This document shows positions 8,750-51,576 of a stretch of 64,000 bases of DNA, piece after piece; positions within the stretch are counted from its first letter, which is position 1, and the number at the start of each line of letters is the position of its first letter. Under the pieces are notes generated by a model, which saw nothing but the letters and a program-made list of their open reading frames with translations, was not told the DNA's origin and made no database searches. The DNA comes from a virus (Duplodnaviria; Caudoviricetes): IMG/VR virus record IMGVR_UViG_3300011113_000415; one strand, given 5' to 3'. Position numbers and translations under genes: made by a program.

Positions 8750-9181
8750 ATGGCAGGATTTACAAAAACCAACGGTACCACCCAACCAGTATTCCACATG
8801 GACACTGGCAATGGCAACATTGGCGGTACAGCAAACATCGCGGCAACAGGTAGTGTTAACTTCCAAGGTCCAAAACTAGACTTTTTCTCAGTTGTGGCCA
8901 ATGGTTCTTTGACAACATCTGGCAACGTTAACGGTTACATCAACAATTTGTTGCAAGCAATTCAACAAACTGCAACAGTTGCTATGTATCAAGTTAGCCC
9001 AGCAGCCCCAACAATCTTGAACTTGGCTGTATACCCAACAGGCGCATACACAGCCACAACATTGTTGGCCACTGCTAACACAAGTTCTACAGTTGCTTCT
9101 GGTGGTCAAAACCTACAGTTGAACTCATGTGCAGGTAACGCTGTGTTCACTACAAGCGCAACAAATTTTGCTCCGGTCTAA
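8750..9181 (+). CDS. putative virion structural protein
   Basis: TAAATA at 8704, leader hairpin, strong AAGGAG RBS, Thr/Gly/Asn-rich sequence, followed by terminator. Confidence 0.5.
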   Translation: MAGFTKTNGTTQPVFHMDTGNGNIGGTANIAATGSVNFQGPKLDFFSVVANGSLTTSGNVNGYINNLLQAIQQTATVAMYQVSPAAPTILNLAVYPTGAYTATTLLATANTSSTVASGGQNLQLNSCAGNAVFTTSATNFAPV

Positions 9182-36063: not shown

Positions 36064-37271
36064 TGGCATCTGATTTGCACAACACCTGCAGTTTTTGCGG
36101 CAAACACAAAGACTCAGTCAAAAAACTCATAGTAGGCGAAAAAGTAGGCATCTGCAATGAGTGTGTGGATTTTTGTCAAGGTTTGTTGATTGATGATTCT
36201 CCAAGATCCACAGATGCTGAACAGACACAACCAAGAAAACTGGACCCCATAGCACTCAAACAATATCTAGATCAGTATGTGATTGGCCAAGATTCAGCCA
36301 AGATCATGTTGAGTGTGGCCATTGTAAATCACTACAAGCGCATCAACAAAACTACTACAGAACCCGAACTGGAAAAGGCCAATGTGCTCATGTTGGGCCC
36401 CACAGGTTCAGGCAAGACCTTGTTGGCCAAATCAGTGGCACGCTATCTCGATGTGCCGTTTGCCATTGCTGATGCCACCAGCATAACCGAAGCAGGTTAT
36501 GTGGGCGACGATGTAGAAAGTTTGATCACCAGATTGTACACAGCCGCTGATGGAGATGTAAACAGAACACAACGTGGCATTGTGTTTGTGGACGAAATTG
36601 ACAAGATTGCTCGCAAAGGTGAAAGCACTTCAATCACAAGAGATGTATCAGGAGAAGGTGTACAACAAGCCTTGCTGAAAATGGTGGAAGGCACTGTGTG
36701 TCGCATACCAGCCGGAGGTGGCCGCAAACACCCATCCGGAGACATGATTGAAATTGATACTAGAAATATCTTGTTCATTGCCGGCGGTGCGTTTGTAGGC
36801 TTGGACTCAATTGTTAAGAATCGTGTGCAAGGAACTTCAATTGGATTTGGTGCTCGAGTAGAAAGTGATTCAAATGCTGACCTTGTGTTGACCACGCCTG
36901 ATGACTTGGTCAAGTATGGCATGATTCCCGAGTTCGTGGGACGTTTTCCCAACTGGGTCAGTTTGCAAGAACTCACCAAACAGGATCTTGTACACATTTT
37001 AACTGAGGTCAAAAACAACTATATCGAGCAGTACCAATGGCTATTTGCTGAAGATGGCGTCGAATTGCAATTCTCAAACGATGCTTTAGATACCATTGCT
37101 GAACGCACACTTGAAAGCCGAACAGGTGCTCGAGGACTACACAGCGAACTGGAACGTGTGCTGATGCCACACATGTACAATCTCAAACGCTATTCTGGAA
37201 TGGGAATAAAGTGCGTACAAATTGATCCTGTTTTGGTAAATATTCCTACAGCACTAGAAGGAACAAATTGA
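36060..37271 (+). CDS. clpX: ClpX AAA+ unfoldase
   Basis: CSFCGK..CNEC zinc finger, [17 protein letters not shown] loop, IGF loop, TGARGL. Confidence 0.96.
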
Positions 37272-37489
37272 AACTACACGGAAGATCAGTACTGGTACAA
37301 GATGGCAACGTTGAGCGAGCCCTGCGTAAATTCAAAAAGAAAATTGCAGAATCCAATCTCATAAACGATCTGCGCGACAGAGAATTTTACGAAAAACCCA
37401 CTACCACACGCAAACGCAAAAAGTCAGCGGCTCGAAATCGCTGGCGCAAAAAACTGGCAGAGCAACAACTGCCCCGAAAACTCTACTGA
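37268..37489 (+). CDS. rpsU: ribosomal protein bS21
   Basis: [12 protein letters not shown]...[22 protein letters not shown]; TTG start; TAAATA at 37238. Confidence 0.9.
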
Positions 37490-37746
37490 TGTTTATCGAA
37501 TTCCAACTGCCCACTGGTTCTGCCGGTATGGCAGCAGGGATGGCCCTACAAAGAATACGTCGAGAACTCAAGTCCTGGAGTGATCGCTACGATATTGCCT
37601 ACACCAGCAAAACCGTAAAATACACACATCGAGTGTGTTTTGATTCGGACAGCCTGTACGATTTTTTTGTAATGAGTTGGAATCCCAAAGGCATTGATTA
37701 TTTGAATAGATATGTGGTTGTATCTGACCGAAATAATAGACCATAA
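37489..37746 (+). CDS. hypothetical phage protein
   Basis: TGATG coupling to rpsU. Confidence 0.6.
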   Translation: MFIEFQLPTGSAGMAAGMALQRIRRELKSWSDRYDIAYTSKTVKYTHRVCFDSDSLYDFFVMSWNPKGIDYLNRYVVVSDRNNRP

Positions 37747-37759
37747 ATGAGATTTCGTG

Positions 37760-37829
37760 TATAAATAACATTGTAAGACGCCGATGGTCGGGTTTTACAT
37801 AGTCATAACTTGCTTAATAGGAGAAAAAC
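37760..37829 (+). promoter_or_regulatory. late promoter plus structured hsp20 leader
   Basis: TATAAATA; hairpin TGTAAGAC-G-CCGA-TGG-TCGG-GTTTTACA; AACTTGCTTAATAGGAGAA. Confidence 0.7.
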
Positions 37830-38261
37830 ATGACAAAAATCACATCTTTAGATCTCACCCCTTTCTACCGTAACACAATTGGCATGGACCGCCTGTTTGA
37901 CAGGATTGTCAGTCAATTTGATCATGCTACGCAGACCAACTATCCACCCTATGACATTGTCAAAACAGGGGACGACAGTTATGAAATTCGTGTGGCAGTG
38001 GCCGGCTTTGGCCAAGGTGAAGTTGACGTGACTTTCCATGAAGGTCAGTTGGTTATCACTGGCGAAAAGCGCACGGAAGAAAATGTCAACTATCTACATC
38101 ACGGCATCAGTGCTAGAAAATTTACACGCAGTTTTCAACTGGCAGAGTATGTGGAAGTTAAATCAGCAATTGCCCAGGATGGCATTCTCACAGTGTGTTT
38201 AGAACGCACGGTGCCCGAAACAGCCAAGCCTAAAACTATTGCTATCACCTACACTTCCTAA
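37830..38261 (+). CDS. hsp20: small heat shock protein Hsp20 (IbpA-like)
   Basis: NYPPYDI, VAVAGF, YLHHGISARKFTRSF, DGIL. Confidence 0.93.
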   Translation: MTKITSLDLTPFYRNTIGMDRLFDRIVSQFDHATQTNYPPYDIVKTGDDSYEIRVAVAGFGQGEVDVTFHEGQLVITGEKRTEENVNYLHHGISARKFTRSFQLAEYVEVKSAIAQDGILTVCLERTVPETAKPKTIAITYTS

Positions 38262-38277
38262 TATAATTGTGTAAATA

Positions 38278-38302
38278 CAGTAGCGGGACTGTCCCGCTAC
38301 TG
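38278..38302. repeat. 25-bp near-perfect palindrome right after TAAATA
   Basis: CAGTAGCGGGAC-T-GTCCCGCTACTG. Confidence 0.85.
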
Positions 38303-38320
38303 AATCAACAAGGATCATTT

Positions 38321-38629
38321 ATGTCGCAAGCAGAAACAGTTGTAGCCACAAGAACACGAACTTCAGTTAAAGAACCCTGTTTATATCGGGTTATCTATCT
38401 CAATGACAACACAACCACCATGGAATTTGTGGTAGAAACCTTGATAGAATTCTTTGGATACACAGAAGAAACAGCCGCACAGATCACAGTTGACATACAC
38501 GATGCAGGATCAGCCACTGTGGCAGTGTTGCCATATGAGATTGCCGAACAAAAAGGTGGAGAAGTTACACTCAGTGCTAGATCACAGAACTTTCCGCTTC
38601 AGGTCAGAATCGAGCCCGACACAGCCTAG
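38321..38629 (+). CDS. clpS: N-degron adaptor ClpS
   Basis: YRVIYLNDNTTTMEFVV, IHDAG, YEIAEQK, FPLQVRIE; AAGGA RBS gives start 38321. Confidence 0.88.
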   Translation: MSQAETVVATRTRTSVKEPCLYRVIYLNDNTTTMEFVVETLIEFFGYTEETAAQITVDIHDAGSATVAVLPYEIAEQKGGEVTLSARSQNFPLQVRIEPDTA

Positions 38630-39433
38630 TCACCAGGCAATTTCAATGCGTTTGGGGTAGTACACATGGTTGCGATGCGGAGTGTCTCCGCGACCGCGAC
38701 AGTTGTTCACGTAACGTATGTTGTTCAGAACTCGATCCACGGAACCATGATAATGTCCAAAACACCAGGTATGAATTTTGCGTTCTGTATCATTGGTATG
38801 CACCATGTGCATGAGTCTGTTGCCCATGGCGTTGAAATGATAATTTCCTGCTAGATCTATATCATGCTGTATCAACTGGGCTTCAGGTACTGTATGAGTC
38901 ACAATTACAATTTTTTTCACATCTTGATGAGTTTGTAGTCTTTGCACACTGCTTACCAAATAAGCCGCATCTGTTCTACTGGCATCGAGAATCCTTTGTG
39001 TATCTACTGTGATCTCAGGGTGATGTGCTTCATAACGATTTTTCATCCATTGTTGTGAACCTTCCAGATCTAAATTTTCGTCTAGATCAAAACCCCACCA
39101 GCCATTGGTTCCCAGAATAGCCACACCATCAATCACAACAACATTTTCTTGTAGATAAGTTACTCTTGGTATTCTGCGTATGGCCTGATTCAATCGTGCA
39201 TAACTGGCGCCAAGATCGTCCAGTTGAAACCGATGCTCATCGTTGCCATCTATGTAAAATACTGCGGCATAACACTCAGAAACATGTTTCAGAAACTTCC
39301 TCACTTGAGCATGATCTCGGGCAATATCCCCGGCTACCACGCACACAGGACTGGTGGCCTGACCAGAAAAGTTCAGTTCATCGTTCCAGGTTTCCAAATG
39401 CAAATCGGAAATTAAATCAAATGCCATTGTCAT
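38630..39433 (-). CDS. calcineurin-like metallophosphoesterase
   Basis: ISDLH, AGD, GNDEH, THTVP, FGHYH. Confidence 0.85.
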   Translation of the reverse strand: MTMAFDLISDLHLETWNDELNFSGQATSPVCVVAGDIARDHAQVRKFLKHVSECYAAVFYIDGNDEHRFQLDDLGASYARLNQAIRRIPRVTYLQENVVVIDGVAILGTNGWWGFDLDENLDLEGSQQWMKNRYEAHHPEITVDTQRILDASRTDAAYLVSSVQRLQTHQDVKKIVIVTHTVPEAQLIQHDIDLAGNYHFNAMGNRLMHMVHTNDTERKIHTWCFGHYHGSVDRVLNNIRYVNNCRGRGDTPHRNHVYYPKRIEIAW

Positions 39434-39457
39434 GATACATATTTAAAAGGAAATGCA

Positions 39458-39826
39458 ATGAACATAATATTTGGATTAGATTCGGTAAAGCCGCTCGAAG
39501 AACGTTACACTGTACTGGAATTAGACACCTTTAATTTACTGCCAACCAATGAGGTAATCACTGCCTACTGTCTGGTAGAAACAATACCCTTAGAAGAAAT
39601 GCCGGCGATTGAGAGTCTCAAACAACAACATCAAAATCTCATGGCCGAATACAAAAAACAGAACTGGCGCTACTGTGAAGATGCCATTGCACATTTAACT
39701 GGCAAATGGGGCGGTGAAGTAAACAGTTTTTACGCTGAATTGTATCAGCGTATACAAACTCTCAAACAAGAGAATCTTCCCGAGAACTGGACTGGTCGTG
39801 TTGATAAGATTGTCGAAGTTGTCTAG
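39458..39826 (+). CDS. hypothetical phage protein
   Basis: AAGGA RBS; divergent from the phosphoesterase. Confidence 0.6.
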   Translation: MNIIFGLDSVKPLEERYTVLELDTFNLLPTNEVITAYCLVETIPLEEMPAIESLKQQHQNLMAEYKKQNWRYCEDAIAHLTGKWGGEVNSFYAELYQRIQTLKQENLPENWTGRVDKIVEVV

Positions 39827-41087
39827 CAAATTTGGTATACTCACGCCGTAGTTTGATTTTATCTGTCAATTTGTATTTTTTTACAAGTTTTAAAAATTCA
39901 AAATAATGTTTACATCGAGATTTTGTCACTTGATTATATGCGGCGTGCAAGTTATTTTTTAACTCACAGTCAATAGAATCCCAAAACTTTTGACTGAAAA
40001 AATGTTTTTTATTAAAGTCGGCAATCTTTTTTGTGTTTTGATAAAAGTTTTCGGCCTGTCTTCCTTGTAAATTTTGTATCTGTTTCATAGCATTTAGGAT
40101 TTTTCCTAGACGTTCAAAAGAATTTTGTTCCAAGTCATAAGATTCGTCTATCCAAGGAGCAAATGTTTTGAATCCGTAATCTCTAAGATATTGCAATGAT
40201 CCAGGACCTGCGGCTAGAATAAAAGGATGACCGCAGGCAATGGCCCTTAACGTTTTTTCAGTAAGGTGCACTCTGCTATCATCAAATACTGTTTCTAAAA
40301 TTACACTTATCTCGGTTGAAATGTAATCACTATAAACATACTCAGAACTTTGAGTACTTGAATACTGATTGTTTGGAATTTTGTCAATTAATTCGGGCTG
40401 TGTTAGATTAAAGGCAGCATTTGCAAATTTGTGCTGAGTGTAATGCACATTATCACTATTAGTGTGCATAATGCTGGTCTGACTTTGAGTATCAAGGCCA
40501 TTGGCTACCAACATCTCTAAAAATTTTAATCTATATTCTCTACGATGACTCCAATCTCTGCAATATATTAAAAATTTCTTTTTTGGAGTACATCTGATGT
40601 TTAATCTAAGGTCATGTTCGGCAAATCTATACCAGTCTCTTGCAATTATTGCATGAGCCCAATAGTACACATCAATAAATCCGTGTTTTTGATATTGAAT
40701 CAAGTCATTTGAATTTTTTTCTGAATGAATAATAATAGCATTATCATAATGTGCGCTGTAAGCCAATAATCTAGATAGCAAATTAAAACTTGCGCTGTAT
40801 TTTAATTTTATTTCGTAAATCGGTGAATCTTTCCAGTCTTTCCAGGGATTTTTCCATTTTTTTGATTCTAAATATATCTGCGGATCATTGTAAAAATTCC
40901 AATCCAATGGTTCTTGATCATGGGCAATTATACCTGGATACTGCCAGTATGCACTAAGGTCATAATCATATAACCAATCTAAATTAGAAATTTTTTTACT
41001 TCCGTGTGGAGAGAATACATAAACTAATGCTGGACCGGGCAACATGTTTGAAATCCAGTGGTATAGATTATCTAAAGGAACGCTCAT
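39762..41087 (-). CDS. putative glycosyltransferase-like protein (TEKT family)
   Basis: ILET..HLTEKTLRAI..GHPFI..GFKTF..WIDESYD; start placed at ATG 41087. Confidence 0.5.
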   Translation of the reverse strand: MSVPLDNLYHWISNMLPGPALVYVFSPHGSKKISNLDWLYDYDLSAYWQYPGIIAHDQEPLDWNFYNDPQIYLESKKWKNPWKDWKDSPIYEIKLKYSASFNLLSRLLAYSAHYDNAIIIHSEKNSNDLIQYQKHGFIDVYYWAHAIIARDWYRFAEHDLRLNIRCTPKKKFLIYCRDWSHRREYRLKFLEMLVANGLDTQSQTSIMHTNSDNVHYTQHKFANAAFNLTQPELIDKIPNNQYSSTQSSEYVYSDYISTEISVILETVFDDSRVHLTEKTLRAIACGHPFILAAGPGSLQYLRDYGFKTFAPWIDESYDLEQNSFERLGKILNAMKQIQNLQGRQAENFYQNTKKIADFNKKHFFSQKFWDSIDCELKNNLHAAYNQVTKSRCKHYFEFLKLVKKYKLTDKIKLRREYTKFARQLRQSYQHDQSSSREDSLV

Positions 41088-42326
41088 ATGGAAAAAATTG
41101 GATTTATTGGGATTGGCAAATTGGGTCTCGATTGTGCCGAAGTCATGGCAGAAAAGCATGAAGTCAGAGGCTACGATATTTACCCACGAGTCAGTGACTC
41201 AGTAAAAGTTTGTGACATTGACGAATTGGTCAACGAAAGCGAATGGATTTTTATCGCTGTACCAACGCCACATGCAGAAGGCTATGATGGATCGGTTCCA
41301 TCAAGTCACATGGAACCTAGAGACTTTGGACACGACGCTGTGATTGACGCCATCAACAAAGTGAATACACATGCTTGTTCACCCAAAAAGGTTGTGTTGA
41401 TTTCCACAGTTCTGCCAGGAACCACACGCCGCAAGTTTTTTCCACTATTAGATCCTCAACATCAATTTTTGTACAATCCTTATCTTATTGCCATGGGATC
41501 GGTCAAATGGGACATGGTCAATCCCGAAATGATCATGATTGGCACAGAAGACGGTGCCTGGAACGGCGTGGCTGGCGAACTTAAAGATTTGTATGACACA
41601 GTGATGCAAAACAATCCACGTTATGAAATTGGCACCTGGGACGAGTGCGAATCAGTAAAGATATTCTATAACACATTTATTTCGGCCAAAGTTGGCCTGG
41701 TAAACATGATTCAAGACTTTGCATTACGTATTGGTAATATTGATGTTGATGTGGTCACAAATGCACTGGCACGAAGCACCATGCGTATCATGGGCCCCAA
41801 GTACATGACAGCCGGCATGGGCGATGCAGGTGCTTGTCATCCTAGAGACAACATTGCCTTGCGCTGGTTGGCAGAAGAATATGACATTGGTTATGATTTG
41901 TTTGACACCATCATGTATGCTAGAGAAATACAAGCAAAGAATCTTGCTCACTTTTTGGTTGATCAAGCCAAAGAACGCGGCATGAGTATTGTGATTCACG
42001 GCAAAGCCTACAAGCCCGATGTACCTTATTGTATTGGATCTTATTCTACCTTGGTTGGACACTATGTTAAAGAAGCAGGGTTTGGTGTGCGATATCTCGA
42101 TCCATTAGCAGATGATCCTACAGAAGTTATTTCTGAATTGGTTGGACCAGTTGTTATACTGTGGGCACACAATCGTAAAATCACGTATGAATACACCGGT
42201 GATCAACCTGATACACTGCCTTATTGTGCTATTCCTCAAGGTTGTGTGATTGTTGATCCATGGCGTAAACTTCCCCAGATTGAAGGACTGACTGTGGTCC
42301 ACTATGGCAACACCCGTAAAAAATAA
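41088..42326 (+). CDS. ugd: UDP-glucose/GDP-mannose dehydrogenase family protein
   Basis: Rossmann GIGKLG, AVPTP, ESVKIFYN, catalytic GACHPRD, AYKPD. Confidence 0.9.
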   Translation: MEKIGFIGIGKLGLDCAEVMAEKHEVRGYDIYPRVSDSVKVCDIDELVNESEWIFIAVPTPHAEGYDGSVPSSHMEPRDFGHDAVIDAINKVNTHACSPKKVVLISTVLPGTTRRKFFPLLDPQHQFLYNPYLIAMGSVKWDMVNPEMIMIGTEDGAWNGVAGELKDLYDTVMQNNPRYEIGTWDECESVKIFYNTFISAKVGLVNMIQDFALRIGNIDVDVVTNALARSTMRIMGPKYMTAGMGDAGACHPRDNIALRWLAEEYDIGYDLFDTIMYAREIQAKNLAHFLVDQAKERGMSIVIHGKAYKPDVPYCIGSYSTLVGHYVKEAGFGVRYLDPLADDPTEVISELVGPVVILWAHNRKITYEYTGDQPDTLPYCAIPQGCVIVDPWRKLPQIEGLTVVHYGNTRKK

Positions 42327-42825
42327 TACCTGGGCCCGCGGGCATGTGGCACCTTGGTGGGGGTTACGTCATCGCGAGTTGGCCTATTTCAACGAAGCAT
42401 TTAATGATCCTGTGAGTCTCAGTGAATGGCGCAGTCTAGGTTATACGCAAAAGAAATTCACAGGGGATATGTACGACATGCGCATGCCCGAGCCCGAATG
42501 GATGCGACAGTTCTCAGATATTTTTCCATTTCAACATCTCAGTTGGAGCGTGTATCGCATGACACCAGGTTGTGTGTTGCCCACGCACAGCGACACTTAC
42601 ACTAGGTTCAAAGAAATATATGCTGTGCCACCTTCAGTCACAGTGGTGCGTACTATTGTGTATCTTGAAGACTGGGCAAGCGGTCACTACGGGGAAATGG
42701 CTGGAGAGCCCATCACAGGATGGCGTGCTGGGGATTGGGTAAGTTGGCATGATGACTTTCCGCACTTGGCAGCCAACATGGGCCGAACAGATCGTTATAC
42801 ATTGCAATTAACAGGAATATTATGA
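42304..42825 (+). CDS. 2OG-Fe(II) oxygenase/cupin-like protein
   Basis: HxD (PTHSD), distal His (PHLAAN) and RYTLQ. Confidence 0.6.
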   Translation: MATPVKNNTWARGHVAPWWGLRHRELAYFNEAFNDPVSLSEWRSLGYTQKKFTGDMYDMRMPEPEWMRQFSDIFPFQHLSWSVYRMTPGCVLPTHSDTYTRFKEIYAVPPSVTVVRTIVYLEDWASGHYGEMAGEPITGWRAGDWVSWHDDFPHLAANMGRTDRYTLQLTGIL

Positions 42826-43733
42826 TATCAAGTGTCAACGAATGGAGTCCATTAAAAAAGATTGTAGTAGGCTCAGCCACTGATGCCAACTGGCCTGTTA
42901 ACGATCCTGTGTTCGCCAAAGAAAGTGAAAAAACAACCTGGAAAGAATCGCCTGTGCCACGTGGACCAGTTCCACAGCGTATAATTGAAGAAACCAATGA
43001 AGATCTAGATGTATTAACCACGACCTTGATGAGTCTAGGCGTCGAAGTTGTACGCCCAGATCCACTCAATTTTCAAGTTCACGATGGCATGTACAATTAT
43101 TGCCCACGTGACAGGCTGCTGGTGTATGGATCCACAGTGATCGATACCGCCATGATGTATCCTTGTAGAGACATGGAATTGCAATGTTATCATGACTTGA
43201 TACAAAATGCTGACGTTGTCCGCATGCCACGTGATCAAGGCATGGTGTTGGATGCAGCCAATGTATGCAGATTGGGCGATCGCATGTTGTTCTTGGAATC
43301 AGCGTCAGGAAATCGTAAAGCATACCAATGGTTGTGTGATAAGTTTCCTGATGTAAGCATAGAACTCTGCAATTTCTATGCTGGGGTGCATATTGATTCA
43401 ACCATTGTTCCGTTACGTGAAGGCCTGGTCATGCTGAATTCTAGCCGTGTGACGTTTGACAATGTACCACATGTGTTTGATGGTTGGCACAAGATCTGGG
43501 TCAACGACGTGGTAGCACAGGACTTCTATAAATATCCTTATGCATCAAAATGGATAGCCATGAACATGTTGGTAGTTGACCCCCACACTGTTATTTGTGA
43601 TCGGAACCAAACTGAATTGATTAAAACTTTACGGAGTTATCGATTTGAAGTCATTCCTCTTGAATTACGTCACAGTCGCACACTAGGCGGCGGATTTCAT
43701 TGTGTTACATTAGACCTGCATCGTGAGTCATGA
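42822..43733 (+). CDS. amidinotransferase (StrB1/AGAT-like)
   Basis: NEWSPLKKIVVG, CPRD, LDAAN, HID, GGGFHCVT. Confidence 0.88.
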   Translation: MISSVNEWSPLKKIVVGSATDANWPVNDPVFAKESEKTTWKESPVPRGPVPQRIIEETNEDLDVLTTTLMSLGVEVVRPDPLNFQVHDGMYNYCPRDRLLVYGSTVIDTAMMYPCRDMELQCYHDLIQNADVVRMPRDQGMVLDAANVCRLGDRMLFLESASGNRKAYQWLCDKFPDVSIELCNFYAGVHIDSTIVPLREGLVMLNSSRVTFDNVPHVFDGWHKIWVNDVVAQDFYKYPYASKWIAMNMLVVDPHTVICDRNQTELIKTLRSYRFEVIPLELRHSRTLGGGFHCVTLDLHRES

Positions 43734-44284
43734 ACATCGCATGGTTGTTTGCTGAAAACACCCTGCTACCTCCTGCCACAGACGTACAGGCCATAAAGAA
43801 TGTGGCACCCATATGGGGATCCTGGCGCACACAACGTGGCTATCAGACAGACAATGTGATCTGCTGGGACTCCGAACAAGCCACCCAGTTGGTGTCACAA
43901 GGTTACGGTGCTATCTGCAATCTGTTCATACACCAGACGGTTTATGATAAATTAGGCAAACCGAACAATGTACGTGTGTTTGGTGGAGAATTTGTGCATG
44001 AGGTAGATTCTCACGATGATGTTGTGGGCATGCACTTGGTGGCCAGCGCCGCAGATGTCATACTCATGGTGGGATTCGACTTTACCGAACCAAAGAATCT
44101 CACAGAATCCCGAACCAATTATCTGGGTCTGGCAGCACAAGTGGTACAAGATCACCCGCGACAGCAGTGGGTCATGATTGATCATCCAACCGAATTAGCC
44201 AAACCGTTCGTAGGGCTGGAAAATATCACTTGCGATTCAATGAAAAATGTGTTACAATTACTGATGTTAAACACAACCGAATAA
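43730..44284 (+). CDS. hypothetical protein
   Basis: ATGA-coupled; contains VGFDF. Confidence 0.55.
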   Translation: MNIAWLFAENTLLPPATDVQAIKNVAPIWGSWRTQRGYQTDNVICWDSEQATQLVSQGYGAICNLFIHQTVYDKLGKPNNVRVFGGEFVHEVDSHDDVVGMHLVASAADVILMVGFDFTEPKNLTESRTNYLGLAAQVVQDHPRQQWVMIDHPTELAKPFVGLENITCDSMKNVLQLLMLNTTE

Positions 44285-44287
44285 TGT

Positions 44288-45316
44288 ATGACTGCTAGAA
44301 TTGGTTTTTGTTGTAAATGGCTCAATGATCCTTCAGAATGCGGGGGCATGAAAGTCAATGCAAAAGATCGTGATCTCAACGGCAGATCAACTACCATGCG
44401 TTGGCTTCGTGAGCACCCTGAAGATGCTGATCAGCGCCAATGGGATATTATGAACCACAATGCCTCAGCCGCGGTGCGATTGATTGAGCGTGTGGCTACC
44501 TTGCCCGAGGGTCGTAGAATGGTACGACTTGGTAGTGAGATGCTACAAGGCTACACTGAACCCAATTGGATTGACTGGTGGCAACGCACAGAAATACAAG
44601 ATCATTGTGCAAAAATTTTTGCACCTGTTGGCGAGGCCGCTAGACGGCTGGGTGTGCGACTGAGTTTTCATCCTGGACAGTTTTGTGTACTGGCCTCAGA
44701 ATCGGACGAAATCGTAGAACGATCAATCTTGGAATTTGAATATCATGTGGACATGGCTCGTTGGATGGGCTATGGTAAGACCTGGCATGATTCGGGATTC
44801 AAGATCAATGTGCATTTATCGGGCAAAGGTGGTCCCGCTAAATTCTTGCAGACACTAGGGCGACTCACGCCTGAAGCAAGAAACTTGATAACCATCGAGA
44901 ATGACGAGATGACAAATGGATTGGACACTACTTTGGCTGTGGCTCAGCATGTGGCTCTTGTGTTGGATTTGCATCATCATTTTATCATGACTGGGGAATA
45001 TATTTCGTCAGATGATGATCGAATTTCTTATATTGTTGACTCTTGGCGCGGTGTCCGTCCTGCACTTCATTACTCACTGAGCCGAGAAGATGAGTTGATT
45101 GACCATGATTCTAAAATTCGACCGAATCTTTCTGAACTTCTGGCCATTGGTCATAAGAAGCAAAAACTTCGAGCACATTCAGACTTTATGTGGAACAATG
45201 CATGCAACGAATGGGCCCTTACTCATTTAGATTGGGCAGATATCCAAGTTGAAGCAAAAGGAAAAAATCTAGCGAGTCAACAATTATTTGAGTTCTGGAA
45301 AGGCCTTGAAAAATAA
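44288..45316 (+). CDS. uvsE: UV-damage endonuclease
   Basis: RLSFHPGQF, INVH, TIENDE, LDLHHH, HYS, RAHSD, VEAKGK. Confidence 0.92.
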   Translation: MTARIGFCCKWLNDPSECGGMKVNAKDRDLNGRSTTMRWLREHPEDADQRQWDIMNHNASAAVRLIERVATLPEGRRMVRLGSEMLQGYTEPNWIDWWQRTEIQDHCAKIFAPVGEAARRLGVRLSFHPGQFCVLASESDEIVERSILEFEYHVDMARWMGYGKTWHDSGFKINVHLSGKGGPAKFLQTLGRLTPEARNLITIENDEMTNGLDTTLAVAQHVALVLDLHHHFIMTGEYISSDDDRISYIVDSWRGVRPALHYSLSREDELIDHDSKIRPNLSELLAIGHKKQKLRAHSDFMWNNACNEWALTHLDWADIQVEAKGKNLASQQLFEFWKGLEK

Positions 45317-45464
45317 ATGTGTTCGATTTTTCAACTTGAAGCAGACTCCTCTACCAACACCTAACTGAATAGATACTTGGTCTGCTGAAATTCCTTTGTT
45401 AAAATAACCTGGCCAGCCAACAGTTGTACGACCAAGCCAATAAATAATCATTTAAGGAGCCAGC

Positions 45465-45761
45465 ATGCGTGAATTTGCGCTGGCGTTCCTATTTTGCTTG
45501 ATCAGCACCATAGCCAACGCTCAAATCAACCTAGACAAACCAGTATACTGTGATTCTGCCACAACAATATTGCAGATAATAAAAGACCGATACCGAGAAA
45601 CACCAGTCTGGATAGGCAGTCAAAGCAGTGGTATCATAATGTTGACCTTGAACGAAACCACACAGTCCTGGACCTTGCTGGAACTCTATGATGAATTGGC
45701 CTGCATACTTGGCACAGGAAAAGCATTCAACACTATGCAAAAAACACGCCCTGTTCTGTAA
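45465..45761 (+). CDS. exported hypothetical protein
   Basis: signal peptide; TAAATA and AAGGAG upstream. Confidence 0.6.
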   Translation: MREFALAFLFCLISTIANAQINLDKPVYCDSATTILQIIKDRYRETPVWIGSQSSGIIMLTLNETTQSWTLLELYDELACILGTGKAFNTMQKTRPVL

Positions 45762-45790
45762 CAAAATTGTAACACACTTTGGCCTAAATA
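45756..45790 (+). promoter_or_regulatory. Pho-box-like repeat plus TAAATA upstream of pstS
   Basis: CTGTAAC-AAAA-TTGTAAC (11-bp period), 11 nt, TAAATA. Confidence 0.7.
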
Positions 45791-45812
45791 ATTGTCTAAC
45801 AAGGAGATTCTA

Positions 45813-46814
45813 GTGAAACAATTATTTGCAATCGTATTAGCGGCATTGACATTATCAGCGTCAGCACAGATCACAGGTGCTGGTGCAACATTTCCATACC
45901 CCATCTACTCAAAGTGGGCAGAACTTTATAACCGGGAAACTGGCGTAACACTCAACTATCAATCCATTGGATCCAGTGGCGGCATTCGTCAAATTGATGC
46001 TAAAACAGTCACCTTTGGTGCCAGTGATGCACCTGTTGCCGGAGACAAGTTGGCCGCAAACGGTCAAGTACAATTTCCAGCAATCATTGGTGGTACAGTT
46101 GCTATTGTTAATTTGGATGGTTTCAAACCAGGCGAACTACGTATCACAGGGCCTGTATTAGCAGAAGTATTTTTAGGCGAAATCTCTAAATGGAATGACC
46201 CAAAGTTAACAGCACTTAACCCGGGTAAAAAATTACCTGACTTGGAAATTACTATTGTGCATCGTGCAGACGGGTCTGGAACAACATTCAACTGGACAGA
46301 TTATTTAACAGCAGTAAGTACCAAGTGGGCTGAGAAGGTAGGTAAAGGTGCCGCAGTCAAATGGCCAGCAGCCTCATCAGTGGGTGGCAAAGGCAACGAA
46401 GGCGTGGCCGCCAACGTACAACGTGTTAAAGGCTCAATCGGCTATGTTGAATATGCTTATGTTAAAAAGAACAACTTGACTTTCTTGCAATTGCAAAATA
46501 AGTCAGGCAAGTATGTTAGTCCAGATGACCTAACATTTGCTGCCGCGGCAGCAGGTGCTGATTGGTTCTCAGTCCCTGGTATGGGCGTGAGTATTGTGGA
46601 TCAAAAGGGCGATACTGTATGGCCCATAAGCACAGCCAGTTTCATCATCATGTACCGAGATCCCGCAGACAAAAAAGCCAGCCAGGACGCACTAAAATTC
46701 TTTGACTGGGCATTCAAGAATGGTAAGAAAGCCGCAGAGGAATTGGATTATGTAGCATTACCTGATAGCCTGACCCGACAAATTCGCGAGCGGGTTTGGA
46801 GTCAGATTAAATAA
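45813..46814 (+). CDS. pstS: phosphate ABC transporter substrate-binding protein
   Basis: GAGATFPYP, YQSIGSSGG, FGASDAP, HRADGSGTT, GKGNEGV; AAGGAG RBS and GTG start. Confidence 0.96.
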   Translation: MKQLFAIVLAALTLSASAQITGAGATFPYPIYSKWAELYNRETGVTLNYQSIGSSGGIRQIDAKTVTFGASDAPVAGDKLAANGQVQFPAIIGGTVAIVNLDGFKPGELRITGPVLAEVFLGEISKWNDPKLTALNPGKKLPDLEITIVHRADGSGTTFNWTDYLTAVSTKWAEKVGKGAAVKWPAASSVGGKGNEGVAANVQRVKGSIGYVEYAYVKKNNLTFLQLQNKSGKYVSPDDLTFAAAAAGADWFSVPGMGVSIVDQKGDTVWPISTASFIIMYRDPADKKASQDALKFFDWAFKNGKKAAEELDYVALPDSLTRQIRERVWSQIK

Positions 46815-46817
46815 ACA

Positions 46818-46860
46818 AACCGAGTGCAACGATAGAGTACTGCTGGAACTCGTAACCAGC
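46818..46860 (+). ncRNA. candidate small structured RNA
   Basis: lies between TAAATA (46808) and a terminator; pairings GCTGG/CCAGC, CGAGT/ACTCG, AGTGC/GTACT. Confidence 0.4.
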
Positions 46861-46892
46861 AAATACCCCATTTTTTTTGGGGTATTTTTTTT
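46861..46892 (+). terminator. rho-independent terminator
   Basis: AAATACCCCA-loop-TGGGGTATTT plus T run. Confidence 0.85.
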
Positions 46893-46917
46893 GTACGTAA
46901 CGATTATAAATATCTGT

Positions 46918-47082
46918 ATGAGTTGGTTCAAAAGAATACCGCACAGATATCCACCCACAACTGCCGCACCCACACCCTATAGGTCCAGCCCTGCTACAGA
47001 TCTAGCACTGGAACAAGCCAAAGCGACCCGCCCAAAATCTCGTAAAAAATCAGTCAAAAAACACCCACTAAATAAGGGATGA
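46918..47082 (+). CDS. small basic Pro-rich protein
   Basis: ATG 5 nt after TATAAATA (46905-46912). Confidence 0.5.
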   Translation: MSWFKRIPHRYPPTTAAPTPYRSSPATDLALEQAKATRPKSRKKSVKKHPLNKG

Positions 47083-47723
47083 AACCCACTATAGCACTGT
47101 TCCTACATCATCCTAGGACTTCGGTGCAGAGTGGAAACGCTGTAATGCAAGCCTTGCGTGAGCATTATCATTTCAAAATATTCACACGCCACGAACTCGA
47201 ATCCGAGTTCTTCAATGATGTAGACTGTGTGGCCTTTCCAGGCGGCATAGGCGATTCAGATTCCTATGACTGGTTGTTCAGAGTCAACGGCCCTGTGATA
47301 CGTAACTACATGGCTCGGGGTGGTAGATATCTTGGCATCTGTATGGGTGCTTACTGGGCAGACGCAGACTACTTTGACATACTAGATGGAGTGCGGGCAG
47401 AACAGTATATTCGAAGACCCGGCACAGACACACGTCGTCCACATGCCAAAGCAGCCAGCATAACTTGGCAAGGCAACCCTGAGCGCATGTATTTTTATGA
47501 TGGCTGTGCCTTGGTGGGTGACGAATCTAGATTTGAAACTGTGGCCAGATATGCCAATGGTGATGCCATGGCCATCATACAAAATCGTGTGGGCCTGATT
47601 GGTTGCCATCCTGAAAGTGTTGAGTTTTGGTACGACAAGAGATATTTAAAACAACATTGGCATCATGGTCGCCATCATCAATTGTTACTAAATTTTGTAA
47701 ATCGATTATTTGTAACAAAATAG
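47079..47723 (+). CDS. class I glutamine amidotransferase-like (BPL_N-type) protein
   Basis: FPGG, YLGICMGAY nucleophile elbow, GCHPE. Confidence 0.75.
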   Translation: MKPTIALFLHHPRTSVQSGNAVMQALREHYHFKIFTRHELESEFFNDVDCVAFPGGIGDSDSYDWLFRVNGPVIRNYMARGGRYLGICMGAYWADADYFDILDGVRAEQYIRRPGTDTRRPHAKAASITWQGNPERMYFYDGCALVGDESRFETVARYANGDAMAIIQNRVGLIGCHPESVEFWYDKRYLKQHWHHGRHHQLLLNFVNRLFVTK

Positions 47724-47744
47724 TCACATGATTTTGCCTAAATA
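47710..47744 (+). promoter_or_regulatory. Pho-box-like repeat plus TAAATA upstream of the plcP-like gene
   Basis: TTGTAAC-AAAA-TAGTCAC, 11 nt, TAAATA; same geometry as the pstS site. Confidence 0.62.
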
Positions 47745-47748
47745 CAGC

Positions 47749-48534
47749 ATGCTGAAAACGTATCGCAGTATTTTTATCAGTGACGTACATCTAGGCACAA
47801 GAGATTGCAAGGCAGAAGAACTCAACAACTTTCTAAAACACAACTCATGCGATACCTTGTATCTTGTGGGTGACATTATAGATGCCTGGAAAATTCAACA
47901 AAACAAATGGCGATGGAAACAAACCCACACCAATGTTGTCCGTCGTGTGCTAGGTCATGCCAAGCGCGGTACTCGTGTGGTATTCATAGCAGGCAATCAC
48001 GACGAGTTTTTAAGACCAATGATACCATATGGATTCAGTTTTGGCTTGATAGAAATTGTCAATCAAACTGAACACATAGGTGTAGATGGTCGGCACTATC
48101 TTGTGGTGCATGGTGACCTGTTTGATGGTATCACAAGACTAGCACCGTGGATTTCATTCTTAGGAGATCGAGCATATGACTTTATTCTTGCGCTTAATAG
48201 CCGATTCAATTGGCTACTGCATCGTTTTGGTATTGGGTACTTTAGTCTTAGCCAGTACCTTAAAAAGCGAGTGAAAAAAGCAGTAGACTTTATTTTTCAC
48301 TTTGAAAAAAATCTAGCCAGTTACTGTCGAAAGCGTGGCTACGATGGTGTTATATGTGGACACATACACCACGCAGAAATAAAAGAAATAGATGGCGTGG
48401 TCTACATGAATGACGGAGACTGGGTAGAGTCATGCACTGCCCTGGTAGAACATCACGATGGACGATGGGAGATTGTAACATGGACACGAAGAAATGACAA
48501 AGAAGATATTAATGGTCACGGACAATGTTCCTGA
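47749..48534 (+). CDS. PlcP-like phospholipase C (LpxH-family metallophosphoesterase)
   Basis: IFISDVHLG, LVGDIIDAW, GNHDEFLR, HGDLFD, ICGHIH, NDGDWVESCTALVE; adjacent GT4 gene. Confidence 0.75.
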   Translation: MLKTYRSIFISDVHLGTRDCKAEELNNFLKHNSCDTLYLVGDIIDAWKIQQNKWRWKQTHTNVVRRVLGHAKRGTRVVFIAGNHDEFLRPMIPYGFSFGLIEIVNQTEHIGVDGRHYLVVHGDLFDGITRLAPWISFLGDRAYDFILALNSRFNWLLHRFGIGYFSLSQYLKKRVKKAVDFIFHFEKNLASYCRKRGYDGVICGHIHHAEIKEIDGVVYMNDGDWVESCTALVEHHDGRWEIVTWTRRNDKEDINGHGQCS

Positions 48535-49501
48535 TCAAATAAATGGTGTCAACACAACTTATCAAAATATCGAGAAGTATGCAATTTTGGATGATTATAT
48601 TATCCATACTCTTCATCCCGGGTGCTTCCGCTACATTGATTGTCCTAAATATAACGAAGTCAAACTTGCCATTCCAAGCAAGATGGGACAGAAGATTGAG
48701 GAGATATCTCCGGATTATATACACATCCAAACAGAAGGTCCTCTTGGTCTGTGGGCTAGAAAGTATCTTTCAATATGTGGTTATAGGTACAACACCGCTT
48801 ATCATACTAAGTTTCCTGAAGGGCTAAAGAAACTGTTTGGTATTCCTGAATTGGTGACATGGCCTCTAGTGCGTTGGTTTCACAAACACTCAGGCAAAGT
48901 GTTGACCACAACTGATAGCATGGTAGCGGAATTGCGCTCACATGGATTCCGGGGCGAAATTGTGTCATGGACACGTGGAGTTGATCGTGAGATATTTCGA
49001 CCCGAACTCAGACAAAACTTTCCTGCCAAGTATTTACTGTGCGTAAGTCGTGTGAGCAAGGAAAAAAATCTAGAAGCATTCTTGGACCTGGACTATCCTG
49101 GCTATCAAAAAATCATGGTAGGTGATGGCCCCATGTTGGAAACATATCGCGAACAGTATCCCGATGTCACATTCTCCGGATTCAAAACAGGTACGGAACT
49201 TGCTAGATATTATGCCAATGCTGAAGTATTTGTATTTCCCAGTCAATGGGAAACATTTGGTATTGTCATGATCGAAGCCATGGCCTGCGGAACTCCAGTG
49301 GCTGCTTATCCCGTTCAAGGTCCGGAGGATGTTGTAGATGAAGGCGTGACAGGTTGTTTGAATTCCAATCTCAAGCAGGCAGTTACTGATTGTTTGTTTT
49401 TAAATAGACAACAGGTATGGTCTGGCAGCCAACGTTGGTCATGGCAACGTGCGTGGGAAATATTCAGAGACAACCTAGTTCCAGCAAAGCCACAAAAATA
49501 A
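48494..49501 (+). CDS. Agt-like GT4 glycosyltransferase (putative DAG glycosyltransferase)
   Basis: VTD..PDQINGV, HIQTEGPLG, YHTKFPE, RGVD, RVSKEKNL, ETFGIVMIEAMACGTPV. Confidence 0.75.
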   Translation: MTKKILMVTDNVPDQINGVNTTYQNIEKYAILDDYIIHTLHPGCFRYIDCPKYNEVKLAIPSKMGQKIEEISPDYIHIQTEGPLGLWARKYLSICGYRYNTAYHTKFPEGLKKLFGIPELVTWPLVRWFHKHSGKVLTTTDSMVAELRSHGFRGEIVSWTRGVDREIFRPELRQNFPAKYLLCVSRVSKEKNLEAFLDLDYPGYQKIMVGDGPMLETYREQYPDVTFSGFKTGTELARYYANAEVFVFPSQWETFGIVMIEAMACGTPVAAYPVQGPEDVVDEGVTGCLNSNLKQAVTDCLFLNRQQVWSGSQRWSWQRAWEIFRDNLVPAKPQK

Positions 49502-49555
49502 ATTACTCATATTGTGTGTGCTTTTATTTTTAGCACCCAAGTTTAAATACTGTCT

Positions 49556-49696
49556 ATGAGCAGTATTTTTGAAGAACTGAATGATCTTATAACTAAGTCA
49601 TCAGTAGGCAAGGTATTGGGAGTCACTTTGATGGTCCTTGTTTTCTCTGGAGCCGTTGCTCTTGGTTTTGCCTATTGGATAACCCACAGGCATTGA
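49556..49696 (+). CDS. small membrane peptide (46 aa, not in ORF track)
   Basis: ATG 6 nt after TAAATA; one TM helix. Confidence 0.45.
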   Translation: MSSIFEELNDLITKSSVGKVLGVTLMVLVFSGAVALGFAYWITHRH

Positions 49697-50476
49697 TCAT
49701 CGGCCGGTATAACGTTTGGGTTCTGCTTCATATCTACGTTGTGCTTCAGTCTTGGGAATGATACCAGTGCCCAATTGAGGATACTTTTCGATTCTATCTT
49801 GTATAATAAACGCAAACATCAGACCAATGCTTGCCGCAATAATTATGCCCATTACTCCCCATATGGCATTGGCCCAGATTGCATCTAGTCGACGACGTTT
49901 CCTAACCGCACGAACGTGATCTTGTTGCATTTGCTTGGCCACAAGTAATTTTTGTTGCTTGCCCATGACCTTCATCATCTCTTCCACTTCTGAATGCAAT
50001 GCACCCAGTTCAGGAGGCGATTGATATACCATTATCTCACGCAGTTCAGTGCCCATCTGTTCCAGTTGCTTGCGCATGAGCACACGTTGTAAGGCACGTT
50101 TGCCCAGACTGGCATCACCTTGATAGATTTCGTGTTGGCTGTGCTTTTCTTCTTCTTCAAAGATGGCCATGCACTTGTAGTAGTTGTCATAGTAGGCGCC
50201 CAAGTGCTCACCAAGTTCAGTATAGATACCTGTTGTTTCACCATCACGTTTGTTCAGTTCAATGATGCGATTTTTTTCTTCTACAAATTGTTTCCTGGCT
50301 TCAGGGCTGGGTGTTTTGCCCTTGGCCTCGTATGCGCCATGAAACTGCTCGTCGAGATCCTTGAGCACGGCTTTGACATCTCCGGCAGCACCTTTGATGT
50401 CTTTGTAGAGTTGGCAACCTTTTTTGACAGCAGCCACAGCACCATTGGCCAGGGCAAATAACGTTAACGGATCCAT
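49697..50476 (-). CDS. helical protein with C-terminal TM segment
   Basis: likely start MDPLTLFALANG at 50476; hydrophobic IWGVMGIIIAASIGLMFAFII. Confidence 0.6.
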   Translation of the reverse strand: MDPLTLFALANGAVAAVKKGCQLYKDIKGAAGDVKAVLKDLDEQFHGAYEAKGKTPSPEARKQFVEEKNRIIELNKRDGETTGIYTELGEHLGAYYDNYYKCMAIFEEEEKHSQHEIYQGDASLGKRALQRVLMRKQLEQMGTELREIMVYQSPPELGALHSEVEEMMKVMGKQQKLLVAKQMQQDHVRAVRKRRRLDAIWANAIWGVMGIIIAASIGLMFAFIIQDRIEKYPQLGTGIIPKTEAQRRYEAEPKRYTGR

Positions 50477-50724
50477 TATTTTGCCCCCTTGAGCATGCGC
50501 CACTCCTTACAGATTAAAGTTCTGTTATTGATATCTCCGATCCAGGCTGTTCTAACACATTCAGCCGCGCCTGCAGACAGTTGTACTTGTTTGGGTTTGA
50601 ATTCTTTTGCCACACTTGACTGATTGCCACCGTACAAGGGACTAGATGACACAATCGCAGAACCACATAGTATTAACAATAATACTAGGATTACAGTTCT
50701 GTAGATAGCCCCATATTTTTTCAT
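50476..50724 (-). CDS. small exported protein
   Basis: hydrophobic N-terminus; two further Cys; TAAATA upstream on the minus strand. Confidence 0.5.
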   Translation of the reverse strand: MKKYGAIYRTVILVLLLILCGSAIVSSSPLYGGNQSSVAKEFKPKQVQLSAGAAECVRTAWIGDINNRTLICKEWRMLKGAK

Positions 50725-50812
50725 TGTACTCTGTGCCCTTGTTGATCAGGACTTAAAGTATTTAAACCAATGTTTGTTCTAGATTAAACAGCGGTTAATT
50801 ATTTTGACCAAT

Positions 50813-50832
50813 AAAAAAGCCCCTTGCGGGGC
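50813..50832 (-). terminator. rho-independent terminator
   Basis: GCCCC-loop-GGGGC with a T run on the minus strand. Confidence 0.75.
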
Positions 50833-50836
50833 GGTG

Positions 50837-51157
50837 TTAGTTGGCAGGAGTTTTTTTGACTCTGGGCTTTTTAAGCACAACTGGTTTTTCAACAGGTGCT
50901 TTTCTAGCACGAGGCTTTTTGGGTTTGGCAGGATTGTCTGCATGATTGGCCCATTCTTCAGGGGTCAGCGAGTGAAGGCCAACACAGAATCCTGTTTGGC
51001 TACGCCCACAACCGCATTTGGTCTGGGTACTTGCTTGAGCAGCCACATCTGGTCTGGGGAATGGCCAATTGGTTGTGGACGCCTCAACTTTGTATGGTGC
51101 TTGGGGTGCGGCCTCTTTTGGTCGGCCAAAAAAGAATTCTTTGAACTTGTTAAACAT
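50837..51157 (-). CDS. CDGSH-like iron-sulfur domain protein
   Basis: CGCGRSQTGFCVGLH fits a CxCxxS...CxGxH variant; AAGGAG RBS; TATAAATA at 51181-51174. Confidence 0.6.
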   Translation of the reverse strand: MFNKFKEFFFGRPKEAAPQAPYKVEASTTNWPFPRPDVAAQASTQTKCGCGRSQTGFCVGLHSLTPEEWANHADNPAKPKKPRARKAPVEKPVVLKKPRVKKTPAN

Positions 51158-51246
51158 TGTGTTCTCCTTGAAGTATTTATATTCTAGTGATCGCTCACTA
51201 GTAAAAACCATTGATTTGCACTTGCAATATCATATATAATAGTACA

Positions 51247-51300
51247 TAGGACGCTGGATAGGCCGGGTCCTACAGTAAACTCGCTTTATAGGAGAACATT
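51247..51300 (+). promoter_or_regulatory. structured leader related to the hsp20 leader
   Basis: TAGGAC-G-CTGG-ATAGG-CCGG-GTCCTA then AACTCGCTTTATAGGAGAA. Confidence 0.7.
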
Positions 51301-51576
51301 ATGTTTACAGCAGACGCAATTATCGACACAGTTCAAACTGGTAAAAAAACCATTGTTAACACATTCGTCACAAACGAATCAGTTAAAGAAGCAATGATCA
51401 AGTTCATTGACACACAAGCAGACTATACCAAAAAAGCCACCAAGGTTGGTATGGATACCATGACCACAATTTCAAGCGAATTGGTCAAGCAGATGGAAGC
51501 CGCGGCAAAATTTGATTATGCCAAAGCCGGCCAGGAGTTTTTAAAGCCATTCCAGCCAGCAACTTCTAAAAAGTAA
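51301..51576 (+). CDS. phasin-like amphipathic helical protein
   Basis: 91 aa, all-helical amphipathic pattern, no Cys/Trp; family call is tentative. Confidence 0.4.
   Translation: MFTADAIIDTVQTGKKTIVNTFVTNESVKEAMIKFIDTQADYTKKATKVGMDTMTTISSELVKQMEAAAKFDYAKAGQEFLKPFQPATSKK

Follow-up and report, generated by a model that had tools for sequence, protein, structure and literature searches.

Two genes in a 64,000-nucleotide stretch of DNA from a virus of the Caudoviricetes (IMG/VR record IMGVR_UViG_3300011113_000415; the whole stretch is referred to below as the window) are preceded by 5' leaders that we suggest to regard as relatives of the ROSE-type RNA thermometers of bacteria. The first leader (positions 37772-37832) precedes hsp20, which encodes a small heat-shock protein, and the second (51247-51303) precedes a gene for a 91-residue protein without family assignment. 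In both, a stable hairpin that contains a bulged G ('hairpin I') stands at the 5' end and is followed by a weak hairpin over the ribosome-binding site ('hairpin II'). We propose that both are weak, probably cold-tuned, ROSE-like translational thermosensors, and we put the probability of this reading, in which the response to temperature is itself a prediction, at about 60%. In bacteria, thermometers of the ROSE-like kind are familiar, also from genes that do not encode chaperones; what is specific to the window is the second copy, located in front of the 91-residue protein family, and the extent, as measured here, to which the sensing hairpin is shortened. No paper describing ROSE-like leaders in phages was found in the literature searched, outside of which most subscription journals lie. 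The parts of the two leaders, and the genes which they precede, are as follows.

37760-37767, plus strand: TATAAATA, promoter-like -10 element of the T4-late type, 4 nt 5' of hairpin I of the hsp20 leader
37772-37799, plus strand: hairpin I of the hsp20 leader; minimum-free-energy fold, aligned to hairpin I of Rfam ROSE_3, covarying in relatives
37802-37834, plus strand: extended hairpin II of the hsp20 leader, consisting of a lower and an upper stem, loop UAAU
37830-38261, plus strand: hsp20, IbpA-like small heat-shock protein of 143 residues (Pfam HSP20, E = 4.5e-20)
51211-51240, plus strand: putative sigma-70-like promoter of the gene for the 91-residue protein (TTGATT, 18 nt, TATAAT)
51247-51272, plus strand: hairpin I of the second leader; minimum-free-energy and centroid fold, -13.3 kcal/mol; 70.2 bits with covariance model R1; covariation
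51280-51294, plus strand: hairpin II of the second leader; CUCGCU (51280-51285, bulged G 51283) with AGGAG (51290-51294), loop UUAU
51301-51576, plus strand: gene for the 91-residue helical protein, from its translation

Both leaders adopt hairpin I as their minimum-free-energy fold (z = -3.2 for the hsp20 leader). In the hsp20 leader, an outer stem of 8 base pairs including one G-U pair (37772-37779/37792-37799) is followed by the bulged G 37780 and by a 4-base-pair inner stem CCGA/UCGG (37781-37784/37788-37791) that carries the loop UGG. Hairpin I of the second leader starts six bases after the TATAAT promoter and comprises a 6-base-pair outer stem (51247-51252/51267-51272), the bulged G 51253 and the inner stem CUGG/CCGG (51254-51257/51263-51266), which has one U-G pair and the loop AUAGG. 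Stems, bulged G and loops are thus present in the sequence of both leaders just as the initial annotation of this DNA had written them. The sequence which that annotation had described as shared over the ribosome-binding site is likewise there, but that it is the anti-Shine-Dalgarno motif of ROSE, and that it contains a further bulged G, had gone unrecognised. It reads AACUUGCUUAAUAGGAGAA at 37807-37825 before hsp20 and AACUCGCUUUAUAGGAGAA at 51278-51296 before the gene for the 91-residue protein; the 19-mer box common to both, AACTYGCTTWATAGGAGAA, occurs at these two sites in the window, where 0.03 are expected, a third site is not found even with up to three mismatches, and none of 100 shuffles reaches two. 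In the hsp20 leader, the upper stem of hairpin II pairs CUUGCU (37809-37814, bulged G 37812) with the Shine-Dalgarno sequence AGGAG (37819-37823), a ROSE-type pairing based on the alignments to ROSE_3 and to covariance model R1, and the lower stem GUCAU/AUGAC (37802-37806/37830-37834), which includes the start codon, is part of the minimum-free-energy fold. Hairpin II of the second leader, folded as an isolated segment, adopts the minimum-free-energy structure (((.((....))))) at -2.5 kcal/mol (37 °C) and aligns to ROSE_3. A covariance model built from relatives and applied to the window with filters off finds the two leader sites at E = 5e-16 and 9e-8, with the next site at E = 0.04.

An Rfam scan of the whole window yielded zero matches at the gathering threshold. 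With an E-value threshold, ROSE_3 (RF02523, a thermoregulator) matches the hsp20 leader with 30.6 bits and the second leader with 19.9 bits, both at full length, and six further homologous leaders with 24-35 bits, while no other regulatory family recurs; the likeness is hence sub-threshold, full-length and recurrent. A filtered genome search with RF02523 on five jumbo contigs gave weak hits elsewhere only and no hsp20 leader, which we ascribe to its first-look filter, since the direct scan does detect these leaders. Hairpin I follows the ROSE_3 consensus: its outer stem is closed by a Y-G pair, next to which stand an unpaired G and an inner stem of the type GCCG...CGG. The sensing hairpin of ROSE_3 reads ACUcGCuGA-loop-UCaGgAG, and the phage version is devoid of its two apical pairs (GA/UC), with the remainder consisting of C-G, U-A, Y-G, the bulged G, C-G and U-A around a loop of 4-6 nt. 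Judged from sequence, the box CUYGCU is the ROSE anti-Shine-Dalgarno motif, predicted to pair with AGGAG around the bulged G. In the short Pseudomonas ibpA thermometers, which consist of two hairpins, hairpin I is GC-rich, insensitive to temperature and conserved in both sequence and structure, U(U/C)GCU is paired to the Shine-Dalgarno sequence, and deletion of the unpaired G locks repression (Krajewski et al. 2013, PMC3669281). The features by which ROSE-like thermometers are recognised recur in the window to a large part: (i) U(U/C)GCU facing the Shine-Dalgarno sequence is found in both leaders, and the box is found in 42 of the 45 distinct leaders collected from relatives (see below), (ii) the bulged G, to which a role in keeping the stem labile can be ascribed on the basis of PMC3669281, is represented by G37812 and G51283, (iii) positions 37772-37829 form the 5' leader of a small heat-shock protein gene of the ibpA type, with the second copy preceding a gene without family assignment, and (iv) the stable GC-rich hairpin I is conserved, its 8 pairs being 99.4% paired and 6 of them showing changes on both sides. 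G-C flanks on both sides of the core formed by Shine-Dalgarno and anti-Shine-Dalgarno sequence are not preserved: the lower C-G is present, the upper GA/UC is deleted, and the stem ends with U-A.

Evidence that the structure is maintained comes from related loci. The Hsp20 protein of the window, used as query, retrieved 10 loci from IMG/VR viral contigs, and the 91-residue protein retrieved 54; many of the matching contigs are 100-364 kb long. The leader is present at every one of the hsp20 loci and at all but one of the others. Covariance model R1, for which 12 cleanly alignable leaders were used and the structure was supplied by hand, detected 61 sites on the fetched loci, 45 of them distinct. 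In the alignment of these 45 leaders, which was fitted to the model, 98.9% of the cells form standard pairs, and 10 of the 15 pairs are changed on both sides; 500 shuffles gave no value as high for any of the measures, and sliding the 3' partner by one column reduces pairing to ∼55%. In spite of the fitting the effect is large, and the outer stems differ visibly between leaders already in the raw sequences. The covariation across homologous leaders that would be expected from the initial annotation's remark that the stems differ in sequence and yet keep pairing is therefore indeed observed. Hairpin II is less variable, with the Y position being C-G in 24 and U-G in 19 leaders. All of its helix cells are paired in the alignment, and the box co-changes with the Shine-Dalgarno site: clades with the ribosome-binding site AAGGAAA possess a matching box, UUUCGCUU or UUUUGUCU, with the bulged G retained. 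G-U pairs are common in the stems (U-G in 32 of 45 leaders at one pair), which indicates that the structure exists in the sense-strand RNA and not in duplex DNA. Among 34 loci of the gene for the 91-residue protein, the leader averages 78% pairwise identity, which exceeds both the 62% of the 60 nt upstream of it and the 57.5% seen at third codon positions and points to purifying selection.

The element is confined to very few genes. For 15 whole viral contigs, we used a second model that was derived from all 61 sites. In these contigs and in three metagenome-assembled genomes (MAGs), matches were found solely before ibpA-like hsp20 genes, members of the 91-residue family and dnaK, apart from a weak one (28.9 bits, in G009) before a 63-residue open reading frame (ORF; L165). 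The latter ORF was considered as a divergent member of the 91-residue family, which, at an aligned identity of 16%, was not established. The four contigs that are at least 97% complete according to CheckV or hold both genes, near-complete genomes with sizes of 300-364 kb, contain exactly two copies of the leader each, one before the gene for the 91-residue protein and one before an ibpA-like hsp20, 8-17 kb apart. A more distant genome of 332 kb has a single copy, before dnaK (L069), and at a further locus (L007) dnaK and hsp20 stand in tandem, each with a leader of its own. Genomes of cultured phages also carry the leader before hsp20, namely those of Methylophilales phage Melnitz (50.3 bits), Sinorhizobium phage Phosso (27.6 bits), Synechococcus phage S-SKS1 (22.2 bits) and Pelagibacter phage Mosig (19.5 bits); the match in phage S-T4 is at chance level. 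With the similarity to ROSE_3, the covariation across 45 leaders and the restriction to hsp20, dnaK and the 91-residue family, the proposal of the initial annotation that a shared cis-regulatory RNA at the ribosome-binding site links the two genes of the window is supported.

The nearest bacterial relatives of the phage Hsp20 exhibit 40-51% sequence identity and are mostly alphaproteobacterial. Of 80 bacterial loci with such relatives, only 6 yield a strong match to the model (31-49 bits), and all six sit on low-GC contigs of taxonomically scattered MAGs, three of which hold several copies on different contigs, solely before hsp20 or the gene for the 91-residue protein. The leader-bearing MAGs (L077, L078, L107, L108, L139 and L092), labelled Haliscomenobacter, Polynucleobacter, Rhodobacteraceae, Parcubacteria, Neomarinimicrobiota and Fischerella, contain phage-type hsp20 or 91-residue protein genes with the leader, several per MAG. 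Two bona fide chromosomes are devoid of the leader, and upstream regions taken from genuine alphaproteobacterial chromosomes give no match to the model. Hence, the leaders in MAGs likely represent phage contigs that were binned with bacteria. The stretch itself is found in riverine, lake-water and viral metagenomes of several studies, so that its habitat is freshwater, and megablast of positions 36000-40000 against deposited phages gave no match.

The -10-like elements end 4-6 nt before hairpin I, and transcripts are therefore presumed to begin at the foot of hairpin I or, probably, a few bases 5' of it. For hsp20, the putative promoter is TATAAATA at 37760-37767, a function read from its sequence, as is the presumed transcription start; (A)TAAATA is located 3-6 nt 5' of hairpin I in nearly all related hsp20 leaders. 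Hairpin I would then form the extreme 5' end of the mRNA, where, being stable, it should be insensitive to temperature and might scaffold the leader or shield the mRNA from decay, by analogy with Pseudomonas ibpA. Hairpin II would be the working part, in which CUYGCU pairs with AGGAG around the bulged G and thereby hides the ribosome-binding site, and the lower stem of the hsp20 leader would additionally cover the AUG. Warming would melt the weak hairpin II and give access to the ribosome. Since hairpin II is missing two apical pairs and is of marginal stability, the switch may be tuned to lake temperatures rather than to 30-42 °C; both the melting range and the effect on translation are predictions. 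The phage lineage would deploy the element on hsp20, on dnaK where present, and on the gene for the 91-residue protein, resulting in heat-responsive synthesis from phage promoters without a host heat-shock sigma factor.

Nearest-neighbour calculations, which handle the non-canonical pairs of ROSE elements poorly, are consistent with a switch operating at lake temperatures. For the second leader, AGGAG is predicted to be fully unpaired with a probability of 0.013 at 4 °C and of 0.23 at 37 °C; for the hsp20 leader, this probability increases from <0.001 to 0.024 at 42 °C. Deletion of the bulged G is predicted to add 2-4 kcal/mol of stability. The composite stem of the hsp20 leader, which covers ribosome-binding site and start codon, amounts to -5.0 kcal/mol at 37 °C. 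Of 32 distinct hsp20 leaders, 20 possess its lower stem, for which the cognate duplex is more stable (-3.3 kcal/mol) than duplexes with swapped or shuffled partners (∼-1.0 kcal/mol). A lower stem was also considered for the second leader (GUAAAC 51275-51280/GUUUAC 51303-51308), where it is part of the minimum-free-energy fold; its coding partner is invariant, the upstream partner varies without compensation, and the cognate duplex (-2.3 kcal/mol) compares with -1.7 kcal/mol for shuffled partners, so that this stem is not established.

Several observations weigh against a thermosensor. All leaders score below the gathering score of ROSE_3 (43 bits), which we attribute to the absence of the two apical pairs of hairpin II. 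The energies of the distinct variants of hairpin II range from -1.3 to -5.1 kcal/mol at 10 °C and from 0 to -1.9 kcal/mol at 37 °C, compared with -10.7 and -6.2 kcal/mol, respectively, for the ROSE_3 consensus, that is, the phage hairpin is predicted to be weaker by 4-6 kcal/mol; the CUUGCU type is at ∼0 kcal/mol between 20 and 37 °C and alone may not repress. The predicted opening of AGGAG is not specific, as any weak stem opens with temperature, and in the minimum-free-energy fold of the hsp20 leader the upper stem is a register-shifted one of 3 base pairs instead of the ROSE pairing. In P. putida, opening of the upper G-C clamp of hairpin II abolished temperature-dependent repression (PMC3669281), and this clamp is absent from the phage leaders. 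Finally, fitting of the 45-leader alignment to the model favours the structure, and the covariation of hairpin II rests on few events.

Some of these points can be turned into an alternative which we consider unlikely, though it is to be taken seriously: the leader might descend from a ROSE element, no longer sense temperature and serve as a constitutive cassette, with hairpin I stabilising the mRNA and the weak pairing of the Shine-Dalgarno sequence setting the rate of translation or keeping the site free of other structures. The marginal energy of hairpin II at 37 °C and the missing clamp that is needed in P. putida (PMC3669281) would then be expected, as would the presence of the leader on the gene for the 91-residue protein, which has no known link to heat, and the occurrence of TAAATA plus a 5' hairpin without anti-Shine-Dalgarno box at two more genes of the window (8704-8730 and 38272-38302). 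However, CUYGCU and the bulged G are kept in the same 42 of 45 distinct leaders in co-change with the Shine-Dalgarno sequence, and the element is confined to chaperone genes and one further family rather than found on highly expressed genes in general. Moreover, the bulge is never lost although its deletion would add stability, which fits selection for a labile stem and thus the thermosensor that we prefer.

Alternatively, a protein encoded by phage or host, or a small RNA, might bind hairpin I together with the box and repress or activate the translation of a small regulon, without direct involvement of temperature. Within each gene family, hairpin I including its loop is more conserved than a mere stabiliser would need, GGACGCUGGAUAGGCCGGGUCC being found in most leaders of the 91-residue family and GCCGAUGGUCGGG in many hsp20 leaders, and the role of hairpin I was left open by Krajewski et al. 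(PMC3669281). Nevertheless, we consider such a binding site improbable. Within one genome the two families have unlike loops (UGG versus AUAGG), and the outer stems vary freely, which would leave a single protein nothing but the bulged G and the inner stem to recognise; the GGA expected in a CsrA-type two-site operator is not conserved in the loop of hairpin I; a candidate binding protein was not found; and the Pseudomonas counterpart of the same architecture functions without protein (PMC3669281).

It is very improbable that the inverted repeats act in the DNA, as operators of the CIRCE or HAIR kind known from heat-shock genes or as terminators or attenuators: they do lie directly 3' of promoter-like -10 elements, and CIRCE-type operators occupy the position directly after the promoter, but the stems differ between loci and nonetheless pair, the many G-U pairs would be mismatches in duplex DNA, no U run follows either hairpin, and the terminator scan does not list them.

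Regarding the genes controlled, the Hsp20 protein of the window has IbpA as its best NCBIfam match (118 bits, below the cut-off of 212). The 91-residue protein belongs to a family of 2461 metagenome protein clusters at 90% identity, none of which has a Pfam domain, and it has no homologue in deposited phage genomes. The protein itself matches nothing in Pfam (even at E = 10), NCBIfam or PHROGs, a profile search against the PDB gave only chance-level hits, and a search of the AlphaFold DB clusters gave nothing coherent, with E-values of at least 0.2. The AlphaFold2 model of the protein is all-helical with four helices, at low confidence (mean predicted local distance difference test, pLDDT, of 62). 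The label 'phasin-like' attached to the gene in the initial annotation finds no support in Pfam, NCBIfam, PDB or fold searches: Phasin_2 (PF09361) matches 1 of 22 homologues (E = 0.0047) and not the window protein, and the Atlas cluster with 13% Phasin_2 members ranks only 72 for the protein, with a score of 0.88. Likewise rejected was the name 'ATP phosphoribosyltransferase', given to many members by JGI, which reflects a chance-level match to HisG (3 of 22 members, best E = 0.0058). The sole functional clue is hence the leader shared with hsp20 and dnaK, and for this very abundant family of phage proteins it is the first.

The putative -35 region of the promoter of the gene for the 91-residue protein is overlapped by the palindrome TTGCACTTGCAA (51216-51227). 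Before TATAAT or TACAAT, many relatives possess in this region a palindrome that is nearly perfect, (A)TGTTGCA-N3-TGCAACA(T), ∼25-45 nt before hairpin I (L018, L020, L029, L039, L041, L042, L048, L053 and others). This palindrome, of which the window holds the weaker version, is possibly an operator of a DNA-binding regulator, a candidate suggested by its sequence. TTGCA-N2-TGCAA is not a general promoter element of the window (8 found, 7.9 expected). On the minus strand, TATAAATA at 51174-51181 and AAGGAG precede an ATG near 51157 that opens a divergent ORF of 106 residues, and the spacer 51158-51300 thus seems to hold two divergent promoters.

The hsp20 gene is located in a proteostasis cluster (36060-38629) that consists of clpX (36060-37271; zinc finger and AAA+), two small ORFs, hsp20 and clpS (Pfam ClpS, E = 2e-24), and within this cluster only hsp20 possesses the ROSE-like leader. 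In three RNA libraries, short metatranscriptome contigs belonging to close relatives overlap hsp20 in part (compared over 37600-38400); such contigs give no 5' end, strand or level. In the related viral contig L008, two tRNA genes (1740-1813 and 2143-2215) are located ∼1 kb upstream of hsp20. Downstream of the hsp20 stop (38261), TAAATA (38272-38277) is followed by a perfect 11-base-pair hairpin, CAGTAGCGGGA-CTG-TCCCGCTACTG (38278-38302, -19.8 kcal/mol), by AAGGA and by ATG 38322, and from this arrangement clpS probably starts at 38322 and not at TTG 38267. The hairpin may serve as 5' stabiliser of clpS, as 3' end of hsp20, or in both roles; at its position (38281), the hairpin of a relative is a different one.

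A similar layout, with a late-type -10 element and a 5' hairpin as at hsp20 and clpS but without anti-Shine-Dalgarno box, is found at 8704-8752, where TAAATA (8704-8709), a hairpin (8713-8730), TTATTAAGGAG and ATG 8750 precede the gene for a 143-residue protein without family. The hairpin (GTAGG-G-C-GAAAA-G-CCTAC, with a bulged G) exists as the initial annotation had written it; its assignment as a weaker relative of the two leaders is not borne out, there being no CUYGCU box and no match to the covariance model. A 5' hairpin after TAAATA is not a general feature of transcripts either: the 44 sites in the window average -6.1 kcal/mol, compared with -5.9 kcal/mol for random 42-mers, and only three of them are followed by a strong hairpin.

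If the leaders sense temperature, these phages carry not only chaperone genes but also a post-transcriptional timing switch for them, placed on phage promoters; the element would then be a virus-borne RNA thermometer of the ROSE class, and its short sensing stem would provide a natural example of how such a switch is tuned to low ambient temperatures. It is tempting to speculate further that large freshwater phages own a heat regulon of hsp20, dnaK and the gene for the 91-residue protein, over which they have spread a minimal ROSE thermometer that is tuned to the cold and undercuts all characterised bacterial ones in length, and that the 91-residue protein is a new heat-induced, chaperone-associated or holdase-like protein made independently of host sigma-32; this wider proposal is tentative, and we hold it to be doubtful as a whole. 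The presence of the leader before hsp20 in the cultured phages Melnitz, Phosso, S-SKS1 and Mosig makes the idea directly testable.

Comparison with known systems places the phage leaders closest to the ibpA thermometers of Pseudomonas (PMC3669281), the layout of which is also that of Rfam ROSE_3. Both precede an ibpA-like small heat-shock protein gene as part of its 5' leader, both consist of two hairpins, with hairpin I featuring a bulged G and an inner stem of the GCCG type, and in both U(U/C)GCU faces AGGAG around an unpaired G, with the start codon following 6-8 nt after the site. In contrast to Pseudomonas, however, the phage hairpin II is devoid of the GA/UC apical pairs, including the upper clamp, and is predicted to be 4-6 kcal/mol weaker; the element stands behind phage-type promoters (TATAAATA or TATAAT) and not behind a sigma-32 promoter; and it is carried by viruses, where it is also found on dnaK and on the gene for the 91-residue protein. 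The classical ROSE elements of Rhizobiales and the ibpA thermometer of E. coli, which comprise 3-4 hairpins, share the U(U/C)GCU motif and the bulged G, and the last hairpin of classical ROSE masks the AUG, as does that of the phage hsp20 leader (PMC3669281); the phage leaders differ in having only two hairpins and a much shorter sensing stem. Finally, ROSE-like elements described for ABC transporter genes (PMC11342760, PMC12857270) would represent a recruitment outside the heat-shock response comparable to that seen for the gene of the 91-residue protein, although those elements are bacterial and belong to a different class of genes.

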